DNA of 32,000 nt from Actinomadura sp. OS1-43. GTDB taxonomy: Bacteria; Actinomycetota; Actinomycetes; Streptosporangiales; Streptosporangiaceae. Positions 2,608-14,485 of this stretch are shown here, piece by piece (position 1 is the first letter of the stretch; each line of letters begins with the position of its first letter). Below the pieces are notes generated by a model. It did not search any database and was not told the origin of the DNA. It saw only the letters and a list, made by a program, of their open reading frames with translations. The position numbers and the translations under genes were made by a program. The stretch lies in assembly GCF_030283205.1 (NCBI RefSeq), contig NZ_JASNWF010000016.1:82018-114017 (forward strand). Direction: 5' to 3'.

Positions 2608-2631
2608 AGCCGAGTGGAGGGACGGACCGTC

Positions 2632-4050
2632 ATGTCCGCAGACCCGAGGCGGTGGTGGGCGCTGGCCGTGCTCGCCACCGCGCAGTTCATGGTGATCATG
2701 GACACGTCGATCATCGGGGTGGCGCTCCCCGACCTGCAGCGCGATCTGGGCTTCGGCCCGAGCGGGTTGCAGTGGGTGTTCAACGCCTACGTCGTCGCGT
2801 TCGGCGGGCTGCTGCTGCTCGGCGGCCGCCTGTCGGACCTGCTCGGCGCGCGGCGGGTGTTCGCGGCCGGCTGGGTGGTGCTGGTCGCCGGGTCGGTGGT
2901 CGCGGCGGCCGCCGGCGGGGCCGGGATCGAGATCGCCGGGCGCGCCGTGCAGGGCGTCGGGTCGGCGCTGATCGCGCCGTCCTCGTTGACGCTGCTGATG
3001 GCGCTGTTCTCCGCGCGGCCCAAGGAGCTGGCCAGGGCGATGGCGTTCTACGGCGCCGCCGCACCGGCGGGCGGGACGGCCGGGGTGTTCCTCGGCGGTG
3101 TCATCACCGAGTGGCTGAGCTGGCCGTGGGTGTTCATCATCTACATCCCGATCGGGCTGGCGACCCTGGCGCTGGTGCCGGGGTTGCTGCCGGACGTCCC
3201 CGGACGCCGCGCCGGGCTGGACGTGCTGGGCGCGGCGGCGGTGACCGGCGGGCTCGCCCTGGCCGTCTACGCGATCGTCCAGGCGCCCGAGCGCGGATGG
3301 GGTGCGACGGCCACCGTCCTGCAACTCGGCGGCGCGGTGCTGCTGCTGGCCTTGTTCGTGGCGTGGCAGCGGATCGTCCGCAGCCCGCTGATGCCGCTGT
3401 CGGTGTGGCGCACGCGCGGCCTGGCCGGTGCGAACGCGGCGATGGCGCTGCTGGGCGCCGCGTGGATCCCGATGTGGTACTTCCTCAACCTCTACCTGCA
3501 GCAGGTGCTCGGGTACGGGGCGTTCCCCAGCGGGGCGGCGCTGCTGCCGATGACCGCGCTGATGATGGTGCTGATGGTCGGCGTCACCGGACGGCTCATC
3601 GGGCGGTTCGGCACCGGGCCGCTCATCGTCACCGGGCTGCTGGTGCTGGCCGCGGGGCTGTTCGTGCTGTCGACGATCGACGCGGGCGGCGGCTTCTTCA
3701 CCGATGTGCTCCCGGGCTCGCTGGTCTCGGCCGTCGGGATGTCGCTGGTGTTCATCCCGGCCACCATGGCCGCGATCGGCGGTGTCGCCCCGGAGCAGGG
3801 CGGGCTGGCGTCCGGCATCGTCAACACCACCTACCAGGTCGGTTCCGCGATCGGGCTGGCGGCGATGACCGCCATCGCCACCTCGCACGGCGGCGGAGAG
3901 CTCGGCAACCTGGGCGCTCTCACCGACGGGTTCCAGGCCGCGTTCGTCGGCGCCGCCGTCGTGGCGCTGGCCGGTTCCGGTCTCGCGCTGGTGACGCTGC
4001 GGGCCCGGTCGGCGCGCGCGGTCCCCGAGAAGGAGACGGTCGGCGCGTGA
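2632..4050 (+). CDS. MFS transporter, DHA2 (EmrB/QacA-like, 14-TMS) drug/cation:H+ antiporter family
   Basis: The ORF frame runs 2614..4050. ATG 2632 follows GGAGGGA (2616-2622) at good spacing and is preferred over GTG 2614. The N-terminus MSADPRRWWALAVLATAQFMVIMDTSIIGVALPDLQRDLGF and the many hydrophobic helices over ~470 aa are typical of DHA2 MFS exporters. Confidence 0.9.
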   Translation: MSADPRRWWALAVLATAQFMVIMDTSIIGVALPDLQRDLGFGPSGLQWVFNAYVVAFGGLLLLGGRLSDLLGARRVFAAGWVVLVAGSVVAAAAGGAGIEIAGRAVQGVGSALIAPSSLTLLMALFSARPKELARAMAFYGAAAPAGGTAGVFLGGVITEWLSWPWVFIIYIPIGLATLALVPGLLPDVPGRRAGLDVLGAAAVTGGLALAVYAIVQAPERGWGATATVLQLGGAVLLLALFVAWQRIVRSPLMPLSVWRTRGLAGANAAMALLGAAWIPMWYFLNLYLQQVLGYGAFPSGAALLPMTALMMVLMVGVTGRLIGRFGTGPLIVTGLLVLAAGLFVLSTIDAGGGFFTDVLPGSLVSAVGMSLVFIPATMAAIGGVAPEQGGLASGIVNTTYQVGSAIGLAAMTAIATSHGGGELGNLGALTDGFQAAFVGAAVVALAGSGLALVTLRARSARAVPEKETVGA

Positions 4051-4171: not shown

Positions 4172-4513
4172 ATGCCGCCGTACGCCGTGGTCCTGTCGGT
4201 CCTGGGGCTGGTGGGGGCGGTCATCGCGGCCGTCTACGCGGTGTCGTACATGGTCGCGCCGGAGATGGAGGGCGGGCCGTTCCTGTCGGGCGGGCGTCCG
4301 CGCGAGCAAGCGATGTCGCGCTACCACGTCCGCTGGTACGCGGTGACGATGGTGTTCCTCGCCTTCGACATGGAGATGGTCTTCATGTACCCGTGGGCGC
4401 TCGTGGTGGCGTCGGTAGGCGTCAAGGCCGTCGTCGAGATGTTCGCGTTCCTGGTGTTGCTGCTGGTCGGTGTCCTGTACGCGTGGCGCGAAGGGGCGCT
4501 GCGGTGGGTCTGA
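4172..4513 (+). CDS. nuoA: NuoA/ND3-like subunit of a complex I-like membrane module
   Basis: 113 aa with three hydrophobic helices. Signature RYHVRWYAVTMVFLAFDMEMVFMYPW matches the NuoA F-D-x-E...Y-P-W motif. SD-like GGGAGGGG lies just upstream. It is the first gene of a coupled operon. Confidence 0.9.
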   Translation: MPPYAVVLSVLGLVGAVIAAVYAVSYMVAPEMEGGPFLSGGRPREQAMSRYHVRWYAVTMVFLAFDMEMVFMYPWALVVASVGVKAVVEMFAFLVLLLVGVLYAWREGALRWV

Positions 4514-5439
4514 GACGGCGGTTGGAGCGGCCGGCGAAGCACAGCCCGCGCCCGTTCGTGGTGTCGGCGGCCGACGGGACGGGGGAGCGGCTCGCGGTCG
4601 AGGCCGGGTTGCGGCGGCGGGGGTGGCGGGCGGCGGTGTCACCGGCGGAGACGGGTGTGCTCGTCGTGTGCGGGCGTCCGGGGGAGGCGCTGGCGGAGGC
4701 GATCGACGAGGTCTGGTCGGGCATGCCGGGGCCGCGGGCGCGGGTCCGGCCGGACGCGCTGGACGACATCGTGTGGGACGGAACCCGGACGTCTCGCCCA
4801 TCGGGCGAAGTGGAGACGGCCGGTCGAGCGGACGACCGGGACGGTCTGCGGCTCGACGTCCTGCACGTCCCGCTCGGTCCAGTGCTGGCGGACTGGCCCG
4901 CGGGCCTGCGGCTCGACCTGGCGTTGCAAGGGGACGTCGTGCAGGCCGCGGAGGCCGTGATGGTCGACACGGGCGGCGGGTCGTTCTGGGAGGGGCGGCC
5001 GGGGGCGCGCGGGCTCGACGGGCTCGCCCGCTTCTTGCGGGTCGCGGGCTGGGACGACGCGGCGCGGCGCGCCGCCGTTCTGCGGGACGACCTCCTCAGC
5101 GGCAAGGAGATCGGGGAGCGGTTCGACACGTTCGACCGGATGGTCCGGCGTTCGCGGTTGCTGCGGTGGATGACCAGAGGGATCGGGAACCTCACACCGG
5201 AGGCGGCGGAGCGGCACGGCGTCGCGCCGCAGCATGTCGGTGACGTCAACGACCGGTTGCGCGGGCGGCTCCGCGAGATCCGGCTCGCCCTCGACGGCGA
5301 CGACTCGCACGGCCATGCCAGGGCCGAGGCGCTCGTGGCGGTGCTGCCCGAGCTGGTGAAGGGCACCGAGCTGGCGCAGGCCCGGCTGATCGTCGCGAGC
5401 CTGGATCCGGACCTCGCGGCGGTGCCGGCCGATGGTTGA
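4504..5439 (+). CDS. Vestigial NuoB-like + NuoD-like fusion protein (cofactor-less Q-module relic)
   Basis: GTG 4504 overlaps the nuoA stop (GTGGGTCTGA). The listed ATG 4393 would overlap nuoA by 120 nt. Residues 44-81 (AVSPAETGVLVVCGRPGEALAEAIDEVWSGMPGPRARV) resemble the NuoB stretch ..SPRQSDVMIVAGT....MAP..R..YDQMPEPRWVI. Residues 124-152 (LGPVLADWPAGLRLDLALQGDVVQAAEAV) resemble the NuoD N-terminus GPQHPAAHGVLRLxLELDGExVxxAxP. IGNLTPEAAERHGV, GDVNDRLRGRLREIRLAL and the C-terminal LIVASLDPDLAAV resemble the NuoD motifs IGxLSxExAxxxGxxGP, GDxYDRYxVRxEEMRxSL and GSxDIVxGEVDR. These are by-eye alignments only. Confidence 0.7.
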   Translation: MGLRRRLERPAKHSPRPFVVSAADGTGERLAVEAGLRRRGWRAAVSPAETGVLVVCGRPGEALAEAIDEVWSGMPGPRARVRPDALDDIVWDGTRTSRPSGEVETAGRADDRDGLRLDVLHVPLGPVLADWPAGLRLDLALQGDVVQAAEAVMVDTGGGSFWEGRPGARGLDGLARFLRVAGWDDAARRAAVLRDDLLSGKEIGERFDTFDRMVRRSRLLRWMTRGIGNLTPEAAERHGVAPQHVGDVNDRLRGRLREIRLALDGDDSHGHARAEALVAVLPELVKGTELAQARLIVASLDPDLAAVPADG

Positions 5440-6295
5440 GGTGCTCGTCCTCGGGCTGATCGCCGTCGCGGCGGCGTCGTTGGACGCGGTGCTCGCGGGC
5501 GGTCCCGGCCCGGTCCGGGAGGCCGCGCGGTTGCTGGTGACCGAGCGGCGCGCGACGCCCAGCGCGGACCGGCTGCTGACGCGGGCCGGTGCGATCTCGC
5601 TGCCGGTGGCGGCGGCGCTGGCCGCGCTCGTCGTGCCGTTCGGCGGCCACGCCGCGCTGGACACGCGGGTCGGCGTCGTGTGGTTCAACGCGATGGAGGT
5701 CGTCGCGTGGGCGTCGGTCTGGCTGGCGGGATGGGGCGTCAACTCCGCGTACGCGCTGGTCGGCGGGTACCGGTTCCTCGCGCAGGGCCTTGCGTACGAG
5801 CTGCCGCACATGTTCGCCCTCATCACGGCGGCGCTGGCGGCGCACTCGCTGGACCTGCGGGCGATCGGTGCGGCGCAGGACGGGCTGTGGTTCGGGGTCT
5901 GGATGCCGGGGGCGTTCGCGGTGTACCTGGTGTCCGCGCTCGCGATGGCGTTCTGGGGGCCGTTCGAGGCGCCGCTGGGCGCCGACATCGCGGGCGGAGC
6001 GGCGCTCGAACTGTCCGGCCCCGACCGCCTGGTCTTCCTGGCCGGACGGTACGGGCTTCTCACCGTGGCGTCGGCCGTGGCCGTCCCGCTGTTCCTCGGC
6101 GGCGGCGCGGGTCCGCTGCTACCCGCGTGGCTGTGGTCGGCGGTGAAGACCTGCGCCGTCCTGGCGCTGCTGGTGTGGGCGAGAAGGCGGCTGCCCGTCC
6201 TGCGGATGGACCGGTTCATGCAGGTGGCGTGGACGGTCCTCATCCCCGCCGTGCTGCTGCAGATGCTCGTGGTCGCGATCGTCGTCGTGGACTGA
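5432..6295 (+). CDS. nuoH: NuoH/ND1-like subunit (short, divergent N-terminus)
   Basis: The ATG overlaps the upstream stop (ATGGTTGA). GWGVNSAYALVGGYRFLAQGLAYELPHMF, PFEAPLGADIAGGAALELSGPDRLVFLAGRY and RRRLPVLRMDRFMQVAWTVLIP correspond to the NuoH motifs GSNSKYALLGGLRAxAQxISYE, PFDLPEAExELVxGxxxEYSGxxFALFFLAEY and RATLPRxRYDQLMxxxWKxLLP. Confidence 0.85.
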   Translation: MVEVLVLGLIAVAAASLDAVLAGGPGPVREAARLLVTERRATPSADRLLTRAGAISLPVAAALAALVVPFGGHAALDTRVGVVWFNAMEVVAWASVWLAGWGVNSAYALVGGYRFLAQGLAYELPHMFALITAALAAHSLDLRAIGAAQDGLWFGVWMPGAFAVYLVSALAMAFWGPFEAPLGADIAGGAALELSGPDRLVFLAGRYGLLTVASAVAVPLFLGGGAGPLLPAWLWSAVKTCAVLALLVWARRRLPVLRMDRFMQVAWTVLIPAVLLQMLVVAIVVVD

Positions 6296-6305
6296 GGAGG
6301 TTCCC

Positions 6306-6815
6306 GTGACCGTCCTGTTCTGGGTGCTGGCCGTCGCGGCGGTCGCCTTCGGTGCGGCGGTGTTCGCCGTCGGGTCGATGGCGCGCGCGACGTTCGCGCT
6401 GCTCGCGTCGTTCCTGTGCGTCGGCGGCGAGCTGCTGCTGGTGGGCCTGCACTACCTCGGCGTGCTGGTCGTGCTCATGATGATCATGGAGATGCTGGTG
6501 ATGGCGGTCTTCATGATCATGTACATGATGGACCCGGGCGGGCTGATGCCGATGTCGATGGTGCACAACCGGCGCGGCGCGCTGGCCGTCGCGGGGACGG
6601 TGTTCGCGGCGCTGGCCGCCGGGGTGTTCGCGATCCCGTGGCCGCAGCGGCGCGGCGCCGCGCCGCACGACCCGACCTTCGCGCTCGGCCAGTCGATCAT
6701 GGGGCCGAAGATGCTGGTGATGATGGTGATCGGCATCGCGATCCTGGCCACGATGATCGCCACGGTCGTGCTGGCGACCCGGACGGGACGCTACGGCGAG
6801 GACGGTGTGCGATGA
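6306..6815 (+). CDS. nuoJ: NuoJ/ND6-like subunit (unusually Met-rich)
   Basis: GTG 6306 lies 5 nt after GAGGAGG. 169 aa with 5 hydrophobic helices. Assigned from its position between NuoH-like and NuoK-like genes and from general NuoJ topology. Confidence 0.75.
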   Translation: MTVLFWVLAVAAVAFGAAVFAVGSMARATFALLASFLCVGGELLLVGLHYLGVLVVLMMIMEMLVMAVFMIMYMMDPGGLMPMSMVHNRRGALAVAGTVFAALAAGVFAIPWPQRRGAAPHDPTFALGQSIMGPKMLVMMVIGIAILATMIATVVLATRTGRYGEDGVR

Positions 6816-7117
6816 CCCTCCAGGCGTTCCTGCTGCTCGCCGCCGCCCTGTTCAGCGTCGGCCTGTACGGCGCGCTGTCGCAGCAGTCGATCGTGATGCT
6901 GATGATGGGCCTGGAACTGATGATCAACGGCATCGTCGTCGCGGCGGGCGGGTTCTGGCACTGGGTGTCGCCGGGCGCGCCGGACGGCCAGGTCCTCGTG
7001 CTCGTCGCGATCACCGTGATGGCGCTGGAGATGGCGATGGGGTTCGCCGTCGTCACCGCCCTGTTCCGCGCCCGGGACGTGGACATGACCGACGACGCCG
7101 GAGACCTCCGAGGATGA
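6812..7117 (+). CDS. nuoK: NuoK/ND4L-like subunit
   Basis: ATGA start/stop overlap with nuoJ. 101 aa, MTLQAFLLLAAALFSVGLYGALSQQSIVMLMMGLELMINGIVVAAG...AITVMALEMAMGFAVVTALFR. Both conserved membrane glutamates (GLELM, ALEMA) are present. The ORF track lists this frame only as part of 6416..7117. Confidence 0.9.
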   Translation: MTLQAFLLLAAALFSVGLYGALSQQSIVMLMMGLELMINGIVVAAGGFWHWVSPGAPDGQVLVLVAITVMALEMAMGFAVVTALFRARDVDMTDDAGDLRG

Positions 7118-8901
7118 TCGTCGCGCTGGCCGTGACGCCGGCCGCCGCGGGTGCGCTTCTGCTGCTCGCGGGGCGGCGGGCCGATCGCGTGGCACCGGCC
7201 GCCGGGGTCCTGGCCGCGGTCGCGGTGCTGGCACTGGCGGTCGCGGCGGCGGTGACGCGTCCCGTCGCGCGTTTCGCGCTGCTGCCGGGGTGGCCCGGCG
7301 GGCTGGCCGTGGACGGGCTGTCCGGCGTGCTCGTGGTGACGGTCGCGTCCGTCCTGACCGCGATCCTGGTCTTCGCGGCCGCAGGCGGGTACGGCGCGCG
7401 GTTCTTCGGCCTGATGCTGCTGTTCGCGGGCGCGATGCTGGTGACGGTCACCGCGTCCGACCTAGTCCTGCTGCTGATGGGGTGGGAGGTCATGGGCGCG
7501 ATGTCGTACGCGCTCATCGGCTACGAGTGGCGGGAGGCCGAGCCGGTGCGCTCGGCGGACGTCGCGTTCCTCACCACCCGCGCCGCCGACCTGGGCCTGT
7601 ACGCCGCGGCGGGCTTCGCCATCGCCGGGACGCACTCGCTCACGCTCTCCTCACTGACCGGCGCAGCCGAACCATGGCGGGATCTCGCGGCGGGCGGGAT
7701 CGTGCTCGCCGCGCTGGGGAAGTCGGCGCAGCTTCCGTTCTCGTTCTGGTTGTCCAGGGCGATGGCGGGTCCGAGTCCGGTCTCGGCGCTGCTGCACTCG
7801 GCCACCATGGTCGCCGCCGGCGCCTACCTGCTGCTGCGCCTGCATCCTCTGCTCGCGGCGACCGGATGGGCCGGCACGCTCGTCGCCTGGGTCGGCGCCG
7901 TGACCGCGCTCGCAATGGGCGCCGTGGCACTGGCGCAGAGGGACCTGAAACAGCTTCTCGCCGCGTCGACCTGCGCGCAGATCGGGTTCATGGTGCTGGG
8001 CGCCGGCGTCGGTTCCGTCTCCGGTGGGACGGCGCATCTCGTGGCGCACGCGACGGTGAAGAGCCTGCTGTTCCTGTGCGCGGGTGCCTGGCTGACGGCT
8101 CTGGGCACCAAGCGGTTGGACGAGCTGCACGGCGCCGCACGCCGATACCGGGTCGTCGGCGTCGCGTTCGGGGCTGCCGCGCTGGCGCTGGCGGGGCTGC
8201 CGCCGCTGTCGCTGTGGGTGACGAAGGACGAGGTGCTGACGGCGGCCGCAGAACGCTCGCCCGCGCTCCTCGCCGCCGGGATGGCCGCCTCCGTGCTGGC
8301 CGCCGCGTATTCGGCCAAAGCGCTGTTCGCGGTGTGGCGCGGTACGCGCAGCGACGGTCAGGTCGTGCCGTGGCTCGAGCGCCTTCCGCTGGTCGCCCTG
8401 GCGGTCGCGGCCTGCGTCCTCGGCGTGCTCGGGCTGCGCGGCGTCGCCGAAGCCCTGGGGATTCCAGGGGAGACGAAGGTGAGCGTCCTTGACCTGGTGG
8501 TTTCCGGTGTTCTGGCGGTGGTGGCGATCGTCGTGGTCCGGTTCGTGCGGGCCGTGTCGGCGCCCGCGTGGGTGGCCGACTGGCTGTTCCTCGAACGGGC
8601 CGCGAGGGCCGGGATCGTCCGTCCGGTGTTCGCGGTGTCGCGGGCGCTCGCCAGGTTCGACGACCGGGTCGTCGACGGCGCGGTCCGGTCCGTCGCGCGG
8701 GCCGGGCTGCGGACGGCCGACCTGGCCGCACGCGGCGCCGAACTTCGCGTGGACGGAATGGTCGACGGGGTCGGGCGCTGCGCGCGGCGGCTCGCCGGGC
8801 TCGCTCGCCGCCCGCAGACCGGGCTGGTCCACACCTACTACGCGCAGGCGGCGGTGCTGCTCGCGGTGCTCGTCGTCGTCGCCGTGTTGGCCGGGTGGTG
8901 A
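7114..8901 (+). CDS. nuoL: NuoL/ND5-like antiporter-type subunit with C-terminal lateral-helix region
   Basis: ATGA overlap with nuoK; 595 aa. Motifs: LLLMGWEVMGAMSYALIGY, LGKSAQLPFSFWLSRAMAGPSPVSALLHSATMVAAGAYLL, HLVAHATVKSLLFLCAG. The C-terminal FDDRVVDGAVRSVA...RRPQTGLVHTYYA resembles the NuoL HL-helix segment. Confidence 0.9.
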   Translation: MIVALAVTPAAAGALLLLAGRRADRVAPAAGVLAAVAVLALAVAAAVTRPVARFALLPGWPGGLAVDGLSGVLVVTVASVLTAILVFAAAGGYGARFFGLMLLFAGAMLVTVTASDLVLLLMGWEVMGAMSYALIGYEWREAEPVRSADVAFLTTRAADLGLYAAAGFAIAGTHSLTLSSLTGAAEPWRDLAAGGIVLAALGKSAQLPFSFWLSRAMAGPSPVSALLHSATMVAAGAYLLLRLHPLLAATGWAGTLVAWVGAVTALAMGAVALAQRDLKQLLAASTCAQIGFMVLGAGVGSVSGGTAHLVAHATVKSLLFLCAGAWLTALGTKRLDELHGAARRYRVVGVAFGAAALALAGLPPLSLWVTKDEVLTAAAERSPALLAAGMAASVLAAAYSAKALFAVWRGTRSDGQVVPWLERLPLVALAVAACVLGVLGLRGVAEALGIPGETKVSVLDLVVSGVLAVVAIVVVRFVRAVSAPAWVADWLFLERAARAGIVRPVFAVSRALARFDDRVVDGAVRSVARAGLRTADLAARGAELRVDGMVDGVGRCARRLAGLARRPQTGLVHTYYAQAAVLLAVLVVVAVLAGW

Positions 8902-8904
8902 GGC

Positions 8905-10392
8905 GTGCTCTCGCTGGTCGTCTTCCTGCCGCTGGCCGTCGCGCTCGTCCTGCCGGTCGCGCCGCGCCGCGCCGTGCCGTGGACGTGGATCGCGGTCACG
9001 GTCGCCGACCTCGCCCTCATCGTGAGCATGTGGCTCGCGCACGGCACCGGGCCCGGCGTCGCCTACGAGGCGGATGTGCGCTGGATACCGTCCGTCCGGG
9101 CGGGCTACCACGTGGGCTTGGACGGGCTGTCCTTCCCACTCGTCACGCTGACGGCGGTACTGTTCGCCGCCTGCGCCGTCTACTCGATCCGGCAGCTGCA
9201 CCGGGTTCGGGCGTTCGCGATCCTTTTCCTGTTCTTGGAGACGGTCTGTCTGGGATTGTTCGCCGCCCTGGACCTGCTGCTTTTCTTCGTCTTCTTCGAC
9301 CTGTCGATCGTCGGCATGTACTTCGTGATCCTGCTGTGGGGGCACGGCGATCGGGCGGCGTCGGCGCTGAAGTTCTTCCTCTACACATTCCTCGGCTCGC
9401 TGGTCCTGCTGCTCGGATTCATCGGCCTGTACCTGGGCGCGGACCCGCACACGTTCGACATGGTGGAACTGACCAGGCACCCGCCGCTCGCCGGGTCGCC
9501 GGGGCTCGCCGGGCTGACGCTGCTGGCCGTCGGCATCGGCCTCGGTATCAAGACGCCGGTCGTCCCGTTCCACACGTGGCTGCCGCCCGCGCACACCGAC
9601 GCGCCCGCCGCCGGGTCCGCGATCCTTGCCGGGGTCATGCTGAAGATGGGCACCTACGGGTTTGTCCGGATCGCCATGCCGATGCTTCCGGACGCATGGC
9701 GGCGCTACGCACTCGTCTTCCTCATCGTGGGCCTGATAAGCGTCCTGTACGGGGCGCTCGTCGCGCTGGCGCAGGACAATGCGAAACGGCTCGTCGCGTA
9801 CACGTCCGTCAATCACATGGGCTACATCGTCCTCGCACTGGGTGCGGCCGGATACGCGTCCGGCGACGTGGACGCGCGGCGGCTCGCCGTCACCGGGGCC
9901 GTCACGCAGATGGTCTCGCACGGGCTCGTCACCGGCGCGCTGTTCCTGCTGTGCGGCGTCCTGTACGACCGCGCCGGAAGCTACGACATCGGGCGGTTCG
10001 GCGGCATCGCGCGGACCGCGCCCGTCTACTCCGGGATGCTGGCGCTCGCCGCGTTCGCGTCCCTCGGACTGCCCGGCCTGTCGGGATTCGTCGCGGAGTT
10101 CCAGATCTTCGCCGGGACGATCGGCAGCGGCACCACGGCGGCGGCCGTGACCGGCGCGCTCGCCGTCCTCGGCATCCTCGTCACGGCGGCGCTGTTCCTG
10201 CGCGTCCTGCACCGGGCAGTGCTGGGCGCGCCCGGTGAGCTGTCCGGGCAGGTAGCGGACGTGCGGCGGGCCGAACTCGCGGCGATCGTCCCGCTGCTGG
10301 CGCTGTCGGTGCTGATCGGCGTCGCGCCGCGCGTCCTGCTCGACACGATCGAGCCGCTGTCGGCGGCCGTGACCGCGCTGGTCGGCCGATGA
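8905..10392 (+). CDS. nuoM: NuoM/ND4-like antiporter-type subunit
   Basis: GTG start 3 nt after the nuoL stop; 495 aa. Motifs: SALKFFLYTFLGSLVLLLGFIGLY, IKTPVVPFHTWLPPAHTDAPAAGSAILAGVMLKMGTYGF, VAYTSVNHMGYIVLALGA, QMVSHGLVTGALFLLCGVLYDR. Confidence 0.9.
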   Translation: MLSLVVFLPLAVALVLPVAPRRAVPWTWIAVTVADLALIVSMWLAHGTGPGVAYEADVRWIPSVRAGYHVGLDGLSFPLVTLTAVLFAACAVYSIRQLHRVRAFAILFLFLETVCLGLFAALDLLLFFVFFDLSIVGMYFVILLWGHGDRAASALKFFLYTFLGSLVLLLGFIGLYLGADPHTFDMVELTRHPPLAGSPGLAGLTLLAVGIGLGIKTPVVPFHTWLPPAHTDAPAAGSAILAGVMLKMGTYGFVRIAMPMLPDAWRRYALVFLIVGLISVLYGALVALAQDNAKRLVAYTSVNHMGYIVLALGAAGYASGDVDARRLAVTGAVTQMVSHGLVTGALFLLCGVLYDRAGSYDIGRFGGIARTAPVYSGMLALAAFASLGLPGLSGFVAEFQIFAGTIGSGTTAAAVTGALAVLGILVTAALFLRVLHRAVLGAPGELSGQVADVRRAELAAIVPLLALSVLIGVAPRVLLDTIEPLSAAVTALVGR

Positions 10393-11765
10393 ACGAGAAC
10401 CCCGCCGACGTCGCGCCCGAGCTGTGCGTGCTGATCGCCGCCGTCCTCGGCCTGGTCAACGGGCTGTTCCTGCCCCGCACCCGGCAGTGGCGGGTCGCCG
10501 CGATCTGCGCGGCCGGGCTGGTCGCGGCCCTCGTGGTCGCCGCCGTCGACGCGACCCGGCCGGACCTGGTCGTGTTCGACGCGTTCTTCGTCGACCCGAT
10601 CACCCACGTCACCCGGATCGCGGTACTCGGCTCGACGCTGCTGGTCCTCGGCCTCGCCGCCGGACCGGTCCGCGACCATCCGCGGGAGAGCGAGCACTAC
10701 GTCCTGATCCTGCTGTCGGCGCTCGGCGCGATGGTGCTCGGCGCCTCGTCCGACCTGCTCGTCGTCGTCGCCGCGTACCTGCTGGCGAGCATCCCCGCGT
10801 ACGCGCTCGCGGGGTTCGGCAAGGACGCGCCCGGCACGGAAGCGGCGTTGAAGTACTACCTGATGGGCGCGTTCCTCGGCGTCGTGATGCTCGCGGGCGT
10901 CACGCTCCTCTACGGGGTCGGGCGCGGCACCGCTTACGGGACGCTCCGCGCCGGCCTCGCCGACGCGCCGTCGGCGGCGGTGTCCGCAGGCGTCGTCGCG
11001 TTGCTGGCCGGGCTGCTGTTCAAGGCGGGCGCCGTACCGGGACACTTCTGGATCCCCGACGTCACCGAGGGCGCGCCCCCGGCGGTCGCCGCGTTCGTCA
11101 CGACCGTCCCGAAGATCGGTGCGTTCGCCGCGCTGCTGCGGTTCGGTGCCGAGGCCTTGCCGCCGGACGCCGCCGGATGGCCGACGGTCGTCGCGGTGAT
11201 CGCGGCGGCCACGATGACGCTCGGCAACCTCGCCGCGTTCGGGCAGGACAACGTCCGCCGGCTGCTCGCCTACTCCACCGTCAGCCAGGCCGGATACCTG
11301 CTGGTCCCGGTCGCGATGGCGGGCCGGACCGACCTCGCGCAGACCGCGCTGCTGTTCTACGTCGCGGCCTACGCGGTGACGAACCTCGGCGCCTTCGCCG
11401 TCGTCCTGGCGGTCGGCCGCGACGACCTCGCCTCCTACACCGGCCTGCTGCGCGCCTCCCCGCCCCTCGGGCTCGCGCTGGTCGTGTGCCTGCTCGGCTT
11501 CATCGGGACGCCGCCGACCGCTGTCTTCGTCGGAAAGGTCCTGATGTTCGGCGCGGCTCTCGATGGCCACTACGTCTGGCTCGCGGTCGTCGCCGCCGTC
11601 AACACGGTCGCGAGCGTCTTCTATTACCTGCGCTGGATCGTCCCGCTGTTCCGGCGGCCGGACGGCGAGTTCACACCGGCCCGGGGAGCGTCGGCGGTCG
11701 CCATGGTGGCCGCGCTGTTCTCGCTGGTCCTTGGCATCGGCGCCGGGGTCGCGCTCACCGCATGA
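10389..11765 (+). CDS. nuoN: NuoN/ND2-like antiporter-type subunit
   Basis: ATGA overlap with nuoM; 458 aa. Motifs: EAALKYYLMGAFLGVVMLAG, LLFKAGAVPGHFWIPDVTEGAPPAVAAFVTTVPK, NVRRLLAYSTVSQAGYLL. Confidence 0.9.
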   Translation: MNENPADVAPELCVLIAAVLGLVNGLFLPRTRQWRVAAICAAGLVAALVVAAVDATRPDLVVFDAFFVDPITHVTRIAVLGSTLLVLGLAAGPVRDHPRESEHYVLILLSALGAMVLGASSDLLVVVAAYLLASIPAYALAGFGKDAPGTEAALKYYLMGAFLGVVMLAGVTLLYGVGRGTAYGTLRAGLADAPSAAVSAGVVALLAGLLFKAGAVPGHFWIPDVTEGAPPAVAAFVTTVPKIGAFAALLRFGAEALPPDAAGWPTVVAVIAAATMTLGNLAAFGQDNVRRLLAYSTVSQAGYLLVPVAMAGRTDLAQTALLFYVAAYAVTNLGAFAVVLAVGRDDLASYTGLLRASPPLGLALVVCLLGFIGTPPTAVFVGKVLMFGAALDGHYVWLAVVAAVNTVASVFYYLRWIVPLFRRPDGEFTPARGASAVAMVAALFSLVLGIGAGVALTA

Positions 11766-13335
11766 CCGGCAGCTCGATCCAGGACGGGCGTCCGGCGTCG
11801 TGGAAGACGGTCTGCTCCGCGCGCACCATCGACGGGTGGCGGTCGAACCGGGGGAAGTTCGACGAGGCGACCTGCACCCGGATGCGGTGCCCGGCCCGGA
11901 ACGTCTGGCTGGTGGCGGCCAGGTCGATCTCGTGCCGGGTCGCGTCGCCGGGGGAGCGGACGATGCCGTCCAGCACGTTCATCGCCCGCCCGTCCGGCCA
12001 CACGTCGACCAGCTTGGCCGTCCAGTCGGCGCCGGGCGCGGAGGTCGCCGCGTGCAGGACCGCCCGGACCGGCCCGGTGACCTCCACGTCCCGGTCGAGC
12101 ACGGGCGTGGTGAAGACGAGGACGTCCGAGCGCGCCTCCACGGCCCGCTGGTCGCGCGGCCCGACGTTGACCGGGTCGTTCAGCAGCAGGTTGCCGCCGT
12201 GCGTGGGGACGGGGTCGTCCGGGTCGTGCACGAAGCGGGACGGCGACGCGTCGCACTCCGGCGCGTCAGCGGACAGAGAACCGCCAGAGTGCAGGTAGTA
12301 CCGGGTGGTGGTGGCGCCGGGCGGCGGCCATGACTCGGCGTCCCGCCACACGTCGGCGCCCATCGTGAAGTACCGGACCGCCGGCCCGCCGGTGTCGCCG
12401 CGCAGGAACGCGATCTGCGCGGCCTCCAGCTGTGCCATCTGGGCGGACGCCGCGTGCCCGAAGTACAGCTCGCCGACGCCGCCCGTCTGGGACAGGTGGG
12501 ACCACGGTCCGATGACGAGGCGCCCGCCAGGAATGCGCCGGTAGTTCTCCAAGGTGCCGCGCAGGAAGACGTCGAACCATCCGGCGACGTGCAGGACCGG
12601 GACGCCGATCCGGTCGTGCCGCAGCGTCTCCGCGAGATCCGTCCAGTACGAGTCGCGTTCCGGATGGTCGACCCAGTCGCGCCAGAACGGGAACGCGTCG
12701 GCGACGGCGGGGATCTCGCGCAGCGGCAGCGACCGCATCGCCGCGTCGGGATCGGCCAGCACCTTCATCAATGGCCCGAGGCGGGCCGCGCCGCCGTTCT
12801 CGATGTCGTGCACCGCGCCGAGCAGCCCTTGGAGCGCGCCCCAGAAGAACGCCGACCCGAGCGCGAACGCGCCGCCGTGGTACTTCAGCCCATCGTAGAA
12901 GTCGTGCGGGGTCATCGCCGCGACGACGGCCTTCAGCGCGTCCGGGCGCTCGGACGCGAGCTGGAGCGCGCATCCGGCGAGGTAGGAGTTGCCGGCGGCG
13001 ACGACCTCGCCGTTCGACCACGGCTGCACGGTGATCCACTCGACGGTGTCGGCGCCGTCGCGCCCCTCGTCCACCCAGGGCGTGAACTCGCCGTCGCTGT
13101 TGCCCCGGCCCCGGCAGTGCTGCAACACCACGGCCATCCCGGCCCGCAGGCAGCCGGTGACCGGAGCGGCCCGGAACACCGGCTCGCCGTAGGGGCCGCG
13201 CATCAGCACGGTGCGGTGCCGCCCGTCGCCGGCGGGCCGGTGCACGTCCGCGCGCAGGACCGTCCCGTCGCGCATCTCGATCGGCTGGTCCAGGACGGTG
13301 ACGGCCGCGAGCGCGGGACGGTCGAGCTTCGTCAC
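11755..13335 (-). CDS. CocE/NonD family hydrolase (S15 X-Pro dipeptidyl-peptidase-like alpha/beta hydrolase)
   Basis: 526 aa with GTG 13335 preceded by GGAGGGA. Features: IEMRDGTVLRADVHRP...VLMRGPYG, CRGRGNSDGEF, nucleophile-elbow-like GNSYLAG, and a C-terminal beta-sandwich region ending HRIRVQVASSNFPRFDRH, typical of this family. It converges on and overlaps the nuoN 3' end by 11 nt. Confidence 0.85.
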   Translation of the reverse strand: MTKLDRPALAAVTVLDQPIEMRDGTVLRADVHRPAGDGRHRTVLMRGPYGEPVFRAAPVTGCLRAGMAVVLQHCRGRGNSDGEFTPWVDEGRDGADTVEWITVQPWSNGEVVAAGNSYLAGCALQLASERPDALKAVVAAMTPHDFYDGLKYHGGAFALGSAFFWGALQGLLGAVHDIENGGAARLGPLMKVLADPDAAMRSLPLREIPAVADAFPFWRDWVDHPERDSYWTDLAETLRHDRIGVPVLHVAGWFDVFLRGTLENYRRIPGGRLVIGPWSHLSQTGGVGELYFGHAASAQMAQLEAAQIAFLRGDTGGPAVRYFTMGADVWRDAESWPPPGATTTRYYLHSGGSLSADAPECDASPSRFVHDPDDPVPTHGGNLLLNDPVNVGPRDQRAVEARSDVLVFTTPVLDRDVEVTGPVRAVLHAATSAPGADWTAKLVDVWPDGRAMNVLDGIVRSPGDATRHEIDLAATSQTFRAGHRIRVQVASSNFPRFDRHPSMVRAEQTVFHDAGRPSWIELPVMR

Positions 13336-13455: not shown

Positions 13456-14319
13456 CTAGCGGCTTGGGCCGCCGCCGAACCACTCGCCCGCGGTGCGGGC
13501 CGGGGGCGGGGCGTCGCCGGGACGCGGCGCCGCGCGCGACCCGCCCTCCTGCAGCGAGCGCAGCCGTTCCTGCAGGGCGCGGTCGGCGTGGATCTCGTCC
13601 TCGCTCGGCGCCATCGCGATGATGATCAGCAGGGTCGTCGACACGACGGCGATGCCGCCGATGAGCGGCAGCAGGAAGTCGATCGGGTCGGCGCCGCCGG
13701 TCGCGCCCGCGTTCCCGTCCATGGTCACCCGCATGGCCGCCATGCCCGTGTAGTGCATGCCGGTGACCGCGACGCCCATGATCAGCGCGGCCCCGGCCGT
13801 CTCCCAGCTGCCCTTGGCACGCAGGCAGAACCACAGCGCCACCGTGGACGCCACCACCGCGATCACCACCGACAGCGCGACCAGCCCGGGCTGGTAGCCG
13901 ATGTGGCCGGACATCCGCATCGCCGCCATGCCGCTGTAGTGCATGCTCACCACGCCGATGCCCATGATGACGCCGGCCGTGACGATGACCGGCGTCCCGG
14001 AGCCGCCGAAGCCGACGATGAACAGCCCGACCGCGACGACCACCACGGCCGCGAGGCAGCTCAGCAGCGTGATCGGGACGTCGTAGCGGATCTGCATGCC
14101 CGAGATGCTGAAGCCGAGGATGGCGATGAAGTGCATCACCCAGATCCCGGTGCCGCCGATCGCCAGCGCCGCGAGCGCCAGCCACGAGGCGCGCGAGCGG
14201 CCCGTGGACGCGCGGGCGCGCGACGTGCACAGCAGCCCGAGGAACGAGCCGACGAACGACATGAGGTAGGCGCACACGGGGGTCAGCAACCCGTATGAGA
14301 AATGGTGCACGTGGGCCAT
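13456..14319 (-). CDS. Stand-alone MHYT-domain integral membrane sensor protein
   Basis: Three MHYT-type repeats (WVMHFIAILGF, MHYSGMAAM, MHYTGMAAM) across about 7 helices. ATG 14319 is preceded by GGGGGA and is preferred over GTG 14346. A short soluble tail follows, with no recognisable output domain. Confidence 0.85.
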   Translation of the reverse strand: MAHVHHFSYGLLTPVCAYLMSFVGSFLGLLCTSRARASTGRSRASWLALAALAIGGTGIWVMHFIAILGFSISGMQIRYDVPITLLSCLAAVVVVAVGLFIVGFGGSGTPVIVTAGVIMGIGVVSMHYSGMAAMRMSGHIGYQPGLVALSVVIAVVASTVALWFCLRAKGSWETAGAALIMGVAVTGMHYTGMAAMRVTMDGNAGATGGADPIDFLLPLIGGIAVVSTTLLIIIAMAPSEDEIHADRALQERLRSLQEGGSRAAPRPGDAPPPARTAGEWFGGGPSR

Positions 14320-14485
14320 GCGATCCCCCGTGAAGCACGAGACCACTGGTGAGGTGGCCGCATCATAACCGCACTTATCCGGGCAAATTGGGAACCATGC
14401 AGGTATTGGTCCGAAAATCGACCGCCCGTGCGCGGGCGCTCACCCCCCGGAGCGGCCACCGGACGGGCCGCGTGCGGGAGGACGG

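Follow-up and report, generated by a model that had tools for sequence, protein, structure and literature searches.

The hypothetical gene of the actinobacterial partial nuo operon encodes a cofactor-less relic of the complex I subunits NuoB and NuoD

We asked what the second gene of the actinobacterial 'partial nuo operon' encodes and what a complex built from this operon might do. A copy of the operon lies in the window, by which we mean the whole stretch of 32,000 nucleotides analysed (Actinomadura sp. OS1-43, contig NZ_JASNWF010000016.1, positions 82,018 to 114,017 of the forward strand), a high-GC actinomycete DNA with a G+C content of about 73%. It is formed by eight tightly packed plus-strand genes, nuoA-X-nuoH-J-K-L-M-N, the second of which, here called X (4504..5439), encodes a protein of 311 aa. 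The same arrangement, nuoA, a hypothetical gene and nuoH-J-K-L-M-N, is known as nuoAHJKLMN or 'NDH-1 partial 2' (Penn & Jensen 2012, Sun 2018, Almeida 2019; PMC6676996, PMC3314556) and has repeatedly been picked out among the acquired 'marine adaptation genes' of marine and halotolerant actinomycetes (PMC3314556, PMC6002675, PMC6676996, PMC8622039), and the hypothetical gene was described as being without homologues in UniProt or PDB (Almeida et al. 2019, PMC6676996). No earlier identification of the gene as NuoB- or NuoD-like was found in Pfam, NCBIfam or the literature, the last of which was searched in part of the journals. Our analyses revealed that X is a fused and shrunken descendant of NuoB and NuoD in which all the residues of the redox chemistry have been lost. 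What is new here is that the hypothetical gene of a known operon is a redox-dead NuoB-NuoD relic, so that the Q module survives only as a cofactor-less fusion.

The gene starts with GTG at position 4504 and ends with TGA at 5437-5439, its start overlapping the stop of the nuoA-like gene by 10 nt and its stop overlapping the start of the nuoH-like gene. A GTG located upstream at 4393 was rejected as the start since it lies inside nuoA and the homologues of X begin at the same MGLR. The deduced protein and an Actinomadura opuntiae hypothetical protein are 100% identical. When X was scanned directly against Pfam, no family was returned at E<=1, while the matches to NCBIfam models were weak and partial and fell at the predicted places, FpoD at residues 202-243 (E=0.01) and NuoB at residues 36-78 (E=0.13-0.19). 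The AlphaFold model of the full-length protein showed a predicted local distance difference test score (pLDDT) of 89 and a predicted template modelling score of 0.87, and was weak only in the linker between the two domains. The NuoB-NuoD identity is supported for each half by profile-sequence search, profile-profile alignment and predicted-fold search.

The NuoB-like half-domain comprises residues 1-88 (4504..4767, plus strand) and is made up of an N-terminal helix followed by beta1-alpha1-beta2-alpha2-beta3-alpha3. Family alignments of 32 (A1) and 134 (A2) X sequences were searched against all PDB chain sequences. With hmmsearch at E<0.1 the family profile matched NuoB-family chains only, namely Nqo6 (E=3.9e-7), PSST/NDUFS7, NdhK, MbhJ and HycG, and the aligned stretch was SPxxxD-LVVxG...VW.QMPxPR. 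Reference alignments of our own, consisting of 9 NuoB and 11 NuoD sequences, drew on the operon of E. coli and on operons carried by bacterial and haloarchaeal plasmids. Alignment of the X family with the NuoB reference by hhalign gave E=1.6e-7, and the N-terminal domain alone gave E=6.3e-9 with a probability of 95.9%, residues 20-84 of X being paired with residues 66-127 of E. coli NuoB. When the AlphaFold model of residues 1-92 (pLDDT 83) was used as the Foldseek query, chains of NuoB, PSST, Nqo6, NdhK, MbhJ and HycG accounted for 46 of the 50 top matches, and superposition on NuoB/PSST chains gave template modelling scores of 0.65-0.69 and root mean square deviations of 2.2-2.7 Å over about 79 columns with 22-26% identity. 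In the same half, P75-x-P77-R78 is the counterpart of the NuoB 'PEPR' motif. The curated NuoB models stayed under their thresholds on X, TIGR01957 with 11.7 bits (cutoff 142.7) and NF005012 with 11.8 bits (cutoff 116).

The NuoD-like domain comprises residues 106-311 (4819..5436, plus strand) and contains an N-terminal beta-sheet with a remodelled beta1-beta2 loop, a helical bundle and a C-terminal ASLDPD helix. The full-length model compared with PDB by Foldseek retrieved NuoD, NDUFS2, Nqo4, NdhH, HycE or MbsL chains in all of the 50 top matches (E from 7e-5 to 2e-3, probability 1.0). Global hhalign of X residues 104-311 against the 11-sequence NuoD alignment was collinear over NuoD 6-407 (E=2.5e-6, probability 77%), and local hhalign paired X residues 212-305 with NuoD 203-403 (E=1.8e-4). 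The NuoD alignment pairs LGPVLADWPAGLRL of X with LGPxHPxxHGxxRI, RGIGNLTPEAAERHGV with the GVG...A...G block, GDVNDRLRGRLREIR with GDxYxR...R..EM and LIVASLDPD with the C-terminal ..lgS.D motif. The GDVxDR...R.EI helix of NuoD is kept, and the ASLDPD motif of X resembles the corresponding motif of Thermus thermophilus Nqo4, which we take to read ASLDPV. Two other searches gave no significant NuoD match: NuoD was never matched when the X family profile was run against PDB sequences with hmmsearch, and hhalign of the X family with E. coli NuoCD as a lone sequence did not reach significance (E=0.14-0.17), the best local match lying at the predicted GPxHP site with the 32-sequence profile and elsewhere in NuoCD with the 134-sequence profile. 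Among the curated NuoD models PF00346 did not match X, and the sole match was the partial one to FpoD, with 14.9 bits (cutoff 600).

An earlier note on this DNA, made from the letters alone, had read X by eye as a collapsed NuoB-NuoD fusion and had set two of its segments beside NuoB and the NuoD N-terminus. These segments were correctly translated, nucleotides 4633-4746 as AVSPAETGVLVVCGRPGEALAEAIDEVWSGMPGPRARV and nucleotides 4873-4959 as LGPVLADWPAGLRLDLALQGDVVQAAEAV, and the blocks paired in the NuoD alignment are the ones that it had chosen. The significant profile similarity and predicted-structure similarity to both families bear the reading out, the parallels drawn by eye being far beyond chance.

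We then compared X with both subunits at the residues on which their chemistry depends. None of the four cysteine ligands of the iron-sulfur cluster N2 (in CCxxE, GxCA and GCPP) is found in X; the NuoB segments carrying the third and fourth ligands (GxCA and GCPP) are deleted, and the CCxxE region is without cysteine. A match by eye of the tandem CC of NuoB to R29-L30 of X was dropped, a low-confidence part of the global hhalign alignment placing CC elsewhere. The sole cysteine of X is residue 56 (codon 4669-4671), as had been claimed; it occupies the Ala position of the NuoB 'VAG' strand and is at no ligand site. Its column holds Cys in 75, Ala in 43 and another residue in 16 of the 134 family representatives, and 16 of them have no cysteine whatsoever. 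This family-wide census agrees with the claim that X lacks the N2 cysteines and, as judged from the sequences, the X family cannot bind cluster N2.

The quinone site has been altered in a similar manner. The beta1-beta2 loop of X (GPVLADWPAGLRL) is equal in length to that of NuoD (GPQHPSTHGVLRL), with Leu and Pro at both His positions; Leu128 and Pro132 of X correspond to His34 and His38 of T. thermophilus Nqo4. The loop was rightly read in the earlier note as GPVLADWPAG, without histidine, and the loss of the quinone-site histidines is thereby upheld. Within this loop W131 is invariant while P126 and P132 are kept in at least 90% of the representatives. In the global hhalign alignment no counterpart in X was found for the HIGYxHRGxEK...RxDY segment of NuoD, which holds the quinone-binding Tyr87, for the TGPxLRASG...PY loop, or for about 75 aa of beta structure before the last helix.

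Large parts of both subunits are missing, as had been noted. Relative to NuoB/Nqo6/PSST/NDUFS7 (PF01058), X keeps the first half of the flavodoxin-like fold and the SPxxxD-hhhVxG...VW/Y.QMPxPR segment, that is about 88 of about 150 core residues, but has no cluster ligands and is covalently fused to a NuoD-like domain. Relative to NuoD/Nqo4/49-kDa/NDUFS2 (PF00346), it keeps the N-terminal beta-sheet, the beta1-beta2 loop at equal length, the helical bundle, GDVxDR...R.EI and the ASLDP motif, about 205 of about 400 residues, whereas both loop histidines are replaced and three blocks are deleted. Modules of group-4 [NiFe]-hydrogenases (MbhJ/MbhL, HycG/HycE and MbsJ/MbsL) are homologues of NuoB and NuoD too and are also among the fold matches of X; they keep the proximal cluster and the catalytic site, whereas X has neither, and the best matches of X are complex I subunits.

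The X family is large and conserved. Clustering at 50% identity gave 1,273 clusters at E<=1e-3 and 1,042 at E<=1e-10, and X is encoded in at least 310 GTDB species representatives. The 134 representatives, which share 38-78% identity with X of the window, have 13 invariant and about 30 near-invariant columns; D111-R112-D113, D118, G125, W131, G143-D144, G182, R294 and A298 are invariant, and so is the acidic DRDG.LD motif. The ratio of nonsynonymous to synonymous substitution rates (dN/dS), determined with three close orthologues, was 0.29-0.38 for X and 0.13-0.27 for the membrane subunits. X is, on these sequence comparisons, clearly under purifying selection and no pseudogene. The earlier note had allowed that orthologues might expose the region as a recent pseudogene remnant; the dN/dS values and the motifs invariant over more than 1,000 clusters speak against it.

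Public annotation of X is varied. Besides 'hypothetical protein', the labels include 'DUF4779 domain-containing protein' in Mycobacterium avium plasmids, probably an artefact of the low-complexity linker, and 'pentapeptide repeat-containing protein' in one Actinomadura record, while in Pseudonocardia the gene is annotated in fragments with spurious reverse-strand open reading frames. In plasmid pA of Pseudarthrobacter defluvii (L099, 12001-13821) an IS3 transposase splits X and the membrane-subunit genes remain, which amounts to a natural X knockout.

All seven membrane subunits of the operon (NuoA, H, J, K, L, M and N) were matched by Pfam and NCBIfam models. The first gene encodes a nuoA-like product of 113 aa (4172..4513; PF00507, E=3.5e-25), and X is followed on the same strand by genes for nuoH-like (5432..6295, 287 aa; PF00146 from profile position 45, E=6.9e-48), nuoJ-like (6306..6815, 169 aa; PF00499, E=3e-11), nuoK-like (6812..7117, 101 aa; PF00420, E=8e-16), nuoL-like (7114..8901, 595 aa; NF005141, E=2e-89, model positions 5-611 of 615), nuoM-like (8905..10392, 495 aa; TIGR01972, 463.8 bits, over the cutoff) and, as the final gene, nuoN-like products (10389..11765, 458 aa; TIGR01770, E=1e-93). 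X is the only hydrophilic, soluble subunit encoded. The gene order A-X-H-J-K-L-M-N was found, wherever the contig permits, in all of 81 loci from Actinomadura, Spirillospora, Nonomuraea, Nocardiopsis, Streptomyces, Amycolatopsis, Prauserella, Arthrobacter and metagenome-assembled genomes of Gaiellales, Propionibacteriales and Mycobacteriales. Searches by tblastn with E. coli NuoB, CD, I, E, F and G gave only noise in the window and no match at E<1e-5 within 10 kb on either side of the 81 loci. The operon thus is a dedicated complex without peripheral-arm genes that is widespread in Actinomycetota and often plasmid-borne, and it differs from respiratory complex I of the 14- or 11-subunit type in having a complete membrane arm with no peripheral-arm genes nearby.

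Analysis of the channel residues indicated that the membrane arm looks complete and functional, the Lys, Glu and His residues being kept in NuoL, NuoM, NuoK and NuoA with the exceptions of NuoN E133, NuoM E144 and NuoJ Y59. NuoL keeps E144, D178, K229, H254, D303, H338, K342, K399 and D400; NuoM keeps K234, K265, H322, H348 and E407, its E144 being Asp in 19 of 19 orthologues; NuoN keeps K158, K217, K247 and K395; E36 and E72 of NuoK are conserved, and NuoA keeps D79 and E81 (E. coli numbering). A different picture was obtained for the subunits that face X. Aligned to its E. coli counterpart, NuoH is without about 25 residues of the loop between transmembrane helices (TM) 1 and 2, and its acidic loop between TM5 and TM6 is remodelled, E216 and E218 having disappeared and E220 being replaced by Asp, while E157 and E228 are kept; the conserved Glu of the NuoH 'GEY' motif is Arg. 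The 'PFESG' of the NuoA TM1-2 loop is PFLSG in the window, and the Glu position is not conserved over the family. The NuoH and NuoA loops concerned form the lining of the quinone cavity and shift when complex I passes between its active and deactive states. They are degenerate across the family, so that the quinone chemistry was lost jointly by X and its membrane partners.

The linker joining the two domains of X was assigned to residues 89-105 (4768..4818, plus strand; pLDDT 59-61 in the blocks covering 91-110). Its length among the 134 representatives ranges from 28 to 214 aa with a median of 84, it is rich in G, A, D, H, E and M, and 78 of the 134 carry at least five His in it; HGDMDHGDHGDM and MDMDMDMELPGG are examples of linkers rich in His, Met, Asp and Gly. 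X of the window has the shortest linker of the family (28 aa, residues 83-110, nucleotides 4750-4833), with no His. Repeats such as HGDMDHGDHGDM and MDMDMDM in the linkers of homologues resemble metal-binding motifs.

The operon was also found on plasmids of M. avium, M. intracellulare (pMAH135-type), Gordonia, Rhodococcus, Pseudonocardia, Arthrobacter, Curtobacterium and others. Four of seven inspected plasmid copies, those of Arthrobacter FB24 plasmid 1 (L093), M. avium pMAH135 (L094), Pseudonocardia pPaSha1 (L097) and Curtobacterium pC1a (L098), lie inside copper-homeostasis islands that hold a CsoR-type regulator, a heavy-metal-associated (HMA) protein, a CopA-type P-type ATPase, a multicopper oxidase and DUF305. 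F510_1955 is also among the genes of the copper/heavy-metal islands, and in several cases the island genes lie directly upstream of nuoA. Such copper genes were present within 10 kb of 10 of the 81 chromosomal loci, from six or more genera (L035, L060, L064, L065, L069, L070, L071, L075, L077 and L079); none was found in the window or at the close Actinomadura loci. The His/Met content of the linker showed no clear difference between loci with copper context and the other non-Actinomadura loci. The copies on Gordonia hongkongensis p2 (L095) and on a Rhodococcus pyridinivorans plasmid (L096) encode identical NuoA, NuoH and NuoM (shared WP_ accessions); the Rhodococcus operon is directly flanked on both sides by IS3-family transposases, and on the Gordonia plasmid a single IS3 copy lies about 5 kb upstream. 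The identical proteins and the IS3 copies suggest that the entire operon was recently transferred horizontally as one mobile unit.

What, then, might such a complex do? With neither a cluster nor quinone ligands, and with electron-input genes missing as well, the assembly is ruled out as a redox pump, and we regard it as a redox-independent, complex-I-derived cation/proton antiporter in which X caps NuoH, a reading to which we assign a probability of about 0.6. X would dock on the cytoplasmic face of NuoH and NuoA, at the position held by the Q module in complex I, by means of the junction parts that it retains, namely the NuoB alpha2-'PxPR' segment and, from NuoD, the helical bundle, the C-terminal helix and the N-terminal beta-sheet, whose beta1-beta2 loop is unchanged in length but free of His. 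There it would close or gate the former quinone cavity and the entrance of the E-channel, and the eight-subunit complex would operate as a secondary monovalent cation/proton antiporter driven by the proton-motive force (pmf), Mrp-like in function. The earlier note had suggested that X survives only because it plugs NuoH, structurally or conformationally. This is plausible because NuoH and NuoA lost the loop residues of the quinone cavity in parallel, but it may be incomplete, as the His/Met/Asp-rich linkers of most homologues and the copper-island copies hint at a role in sensing or gating beyond that of a passive plug. A bolder form of the antiporter proposal, which we hold only tentatively, is that of a new transporter class in which a full membrane arm has reverted to antiport, X gates the E-channel via the remodelled loop and DRDG.LD, and the His/Met/Asp-rich linker makes the gate metal-responsive in most lineages. 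If true, it would explain the presence of the operon both on copper-island plasmids and in halotolerant and marine actinomycetes.

Several observations weigh against the antiporter reading or against the identity on which it builds. The NuoD signal at the sequence level is modest (hhalign probability 49-77%) and leans mostly on the predicted fold, and X evolves 2-3 times faster than its partner subunits. All 19 NuoN orthologues have Leu in place of the TM5 Glu (E. coli E133), and all 20 NuoJ orthologues have Met in place of Tyr59, followed two positions later by a conserved Glu ('LMMxMEM'); because these two residues are lost, the lateral proton/charge relay beside the E-channel may differ from that of canonical complex I. 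We infer the docking site of X from homology only, just as we infer its plug or gate role, the antiport activity and the ion carried. The link to marine adaptation is correlative, and the window comes from a soil-type Actinomadura lineage. Finally, the copper-island contexts and the His/Met-rich linkers suggest that the function is maybe not simple Na+/H+ exchange.

This last point leads to the explanation that X responds to metals as a gate or sensor on the cytoplasmic side and that the complex serves copper and heavy-metal homeostasis, through metal cation/H+ export or protection of pmf and pH, and is no general Na+/H+ antiporter. The linkers of 28-214 aa rich in His, Met, Asp and Gly (at least five His in 78 of 134), the copper islands around four of the seven plasmid copies, the copper genes near 10 of the 81 chromosomal loci and the invariant acidic DRDG.LD motif all agree with it. 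We nevertheless consider it unlikely, since X of the window has the shortest linker and no His, neither the window nor the close Actinomadura loci have copper genes nearby, the His/Met content of the linker does not clearly track copper context, and plasmid resistance islands gather many unrelated cargo genes. Moreover, neither complex I nor Mrp-type modules are known to transport transition metals. The operon could also supply an alternative membrane arm that borrows NuoB, C, D, I, E, F and G in trans, X then serving as an assembly factor or placeholder that gives way once the enzyme matures. X resembles precisely both subunits that dock on NuoH, and Streptomyces genomes with the partial operon have a full nuoA-N operon as well (PMC8622039); in marine Kocuria, by contrast, the partial operon is reported to be the only nuo cluster and to be absent from terrestrial relatives (Sun et al. 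2018, PMC6002675), which leaves no canonical arm to borrow. The NuoH and NuoA loops that form the quinone cavity with NuoB and NuoD are lost, the operon moves by itself, both on plasmids and flanked by IS3 copies, and X is strictly co-inherited and translationally coupled by start/stop overlaps at both ends, so that borrowing in trans appears quite improbable. Least credible of all, and very improbable in our view, is that X is a functionless remnant decaying after loss of the peripheral arm or that its similarity to NuoB and NuoD is spurious. X is indeed the fastest-evolving gene of the operon, with 36-60% identity against 55-90% for the membrane subunits and the highest dN/dS, and no curated family model recognises it. 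Against this, the reading frame is intact in all loci across the phylum save for the one IS3 insertion, dN/dS is well under 1, the invariant and near-invariant columns persist throughout the representatives, the folded model is confident, and both halves are backed by independent sequence and fold evidence.

The antiporter reading can be set beside two known systems. In the redox-independent mode proposed here the operon would resemble the Mrp (MrpA-G) Na+/H+ antiporters, which have NuoL/M/N-type subunits and NuoK- and NuoJ-like small subunits. It differs from them in that genuine NuoH, NuoA and NuoJ subunits and the vestige of a Q module are present and MrpB, MrpE, MrpF and MrpG are missing; its proteins were best matched by the Nuo and not the Mrp models of NCBIfam, and the MrpA-G set was not encountered. 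While Mrp is regarded as ancestral to complex I, the operon seems to be derived from a complete complex I. The second system is deactive mitochondrial complex I, which acts as a Na+/H+ antiporter (Roberts & Hirst 2012, PMC3464577). The three loops that disengage in it are the ones remodelled here, NuoD beta1-beta2, NuoH TM5-6 and NuoA TM1-2, but there the state is a reversible one of a redox enzyme whereas here the loss is permanent and genome-encoded.

The surroundings of the operon in the window comprise a gene for a 14-TM-type major facilitator superfamily (MFS) transporter directly upstream (2614-4050, plus strand) and, on the minus strand, genes for a Pro-rich protein with a BNR-like domain (373-2475), an S15 (CocE/NonD-type) peptidase (11755-13335) and an MHYT-domain membrane protein (13456-14346). 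None of these four genes is a conserved neighbour of the operon in other genomes. Promoter, terminator and Rfam scans of the operon and the window gave nothing informative.

The identification of X gives an identity to more than 1,000 'hypothetical protein' clusters (50% identity). It also corrects the recurring reading of the 'extra nuo operon' in marine actinomycetes: as X is without cluster or quinone site and is yet the only hydrophilic subunit, the operon cannot encode a proton-pumping NADH dehydrogenase, and the assembly is probably an ion transporter. Nor is the operon limited to marine strains, being found in soil Actinomadura and on mycobacterial plasmids. It is also a natural experiment on how coupling works in complex I, in which elements of the interface were kept, the chemistry was discarded and the three active/deactive loops were remodelled together. 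If the proposed function is true, this would be evolution in reverse, from a redox pump to a secondary transporter, and the plasmid copies of mycobacteria, Rhodococcus, Gordonia and Arthrobacter, often in copper islands, suggest that the operon may be an unrecognised mobile determinant of stress tolerance.

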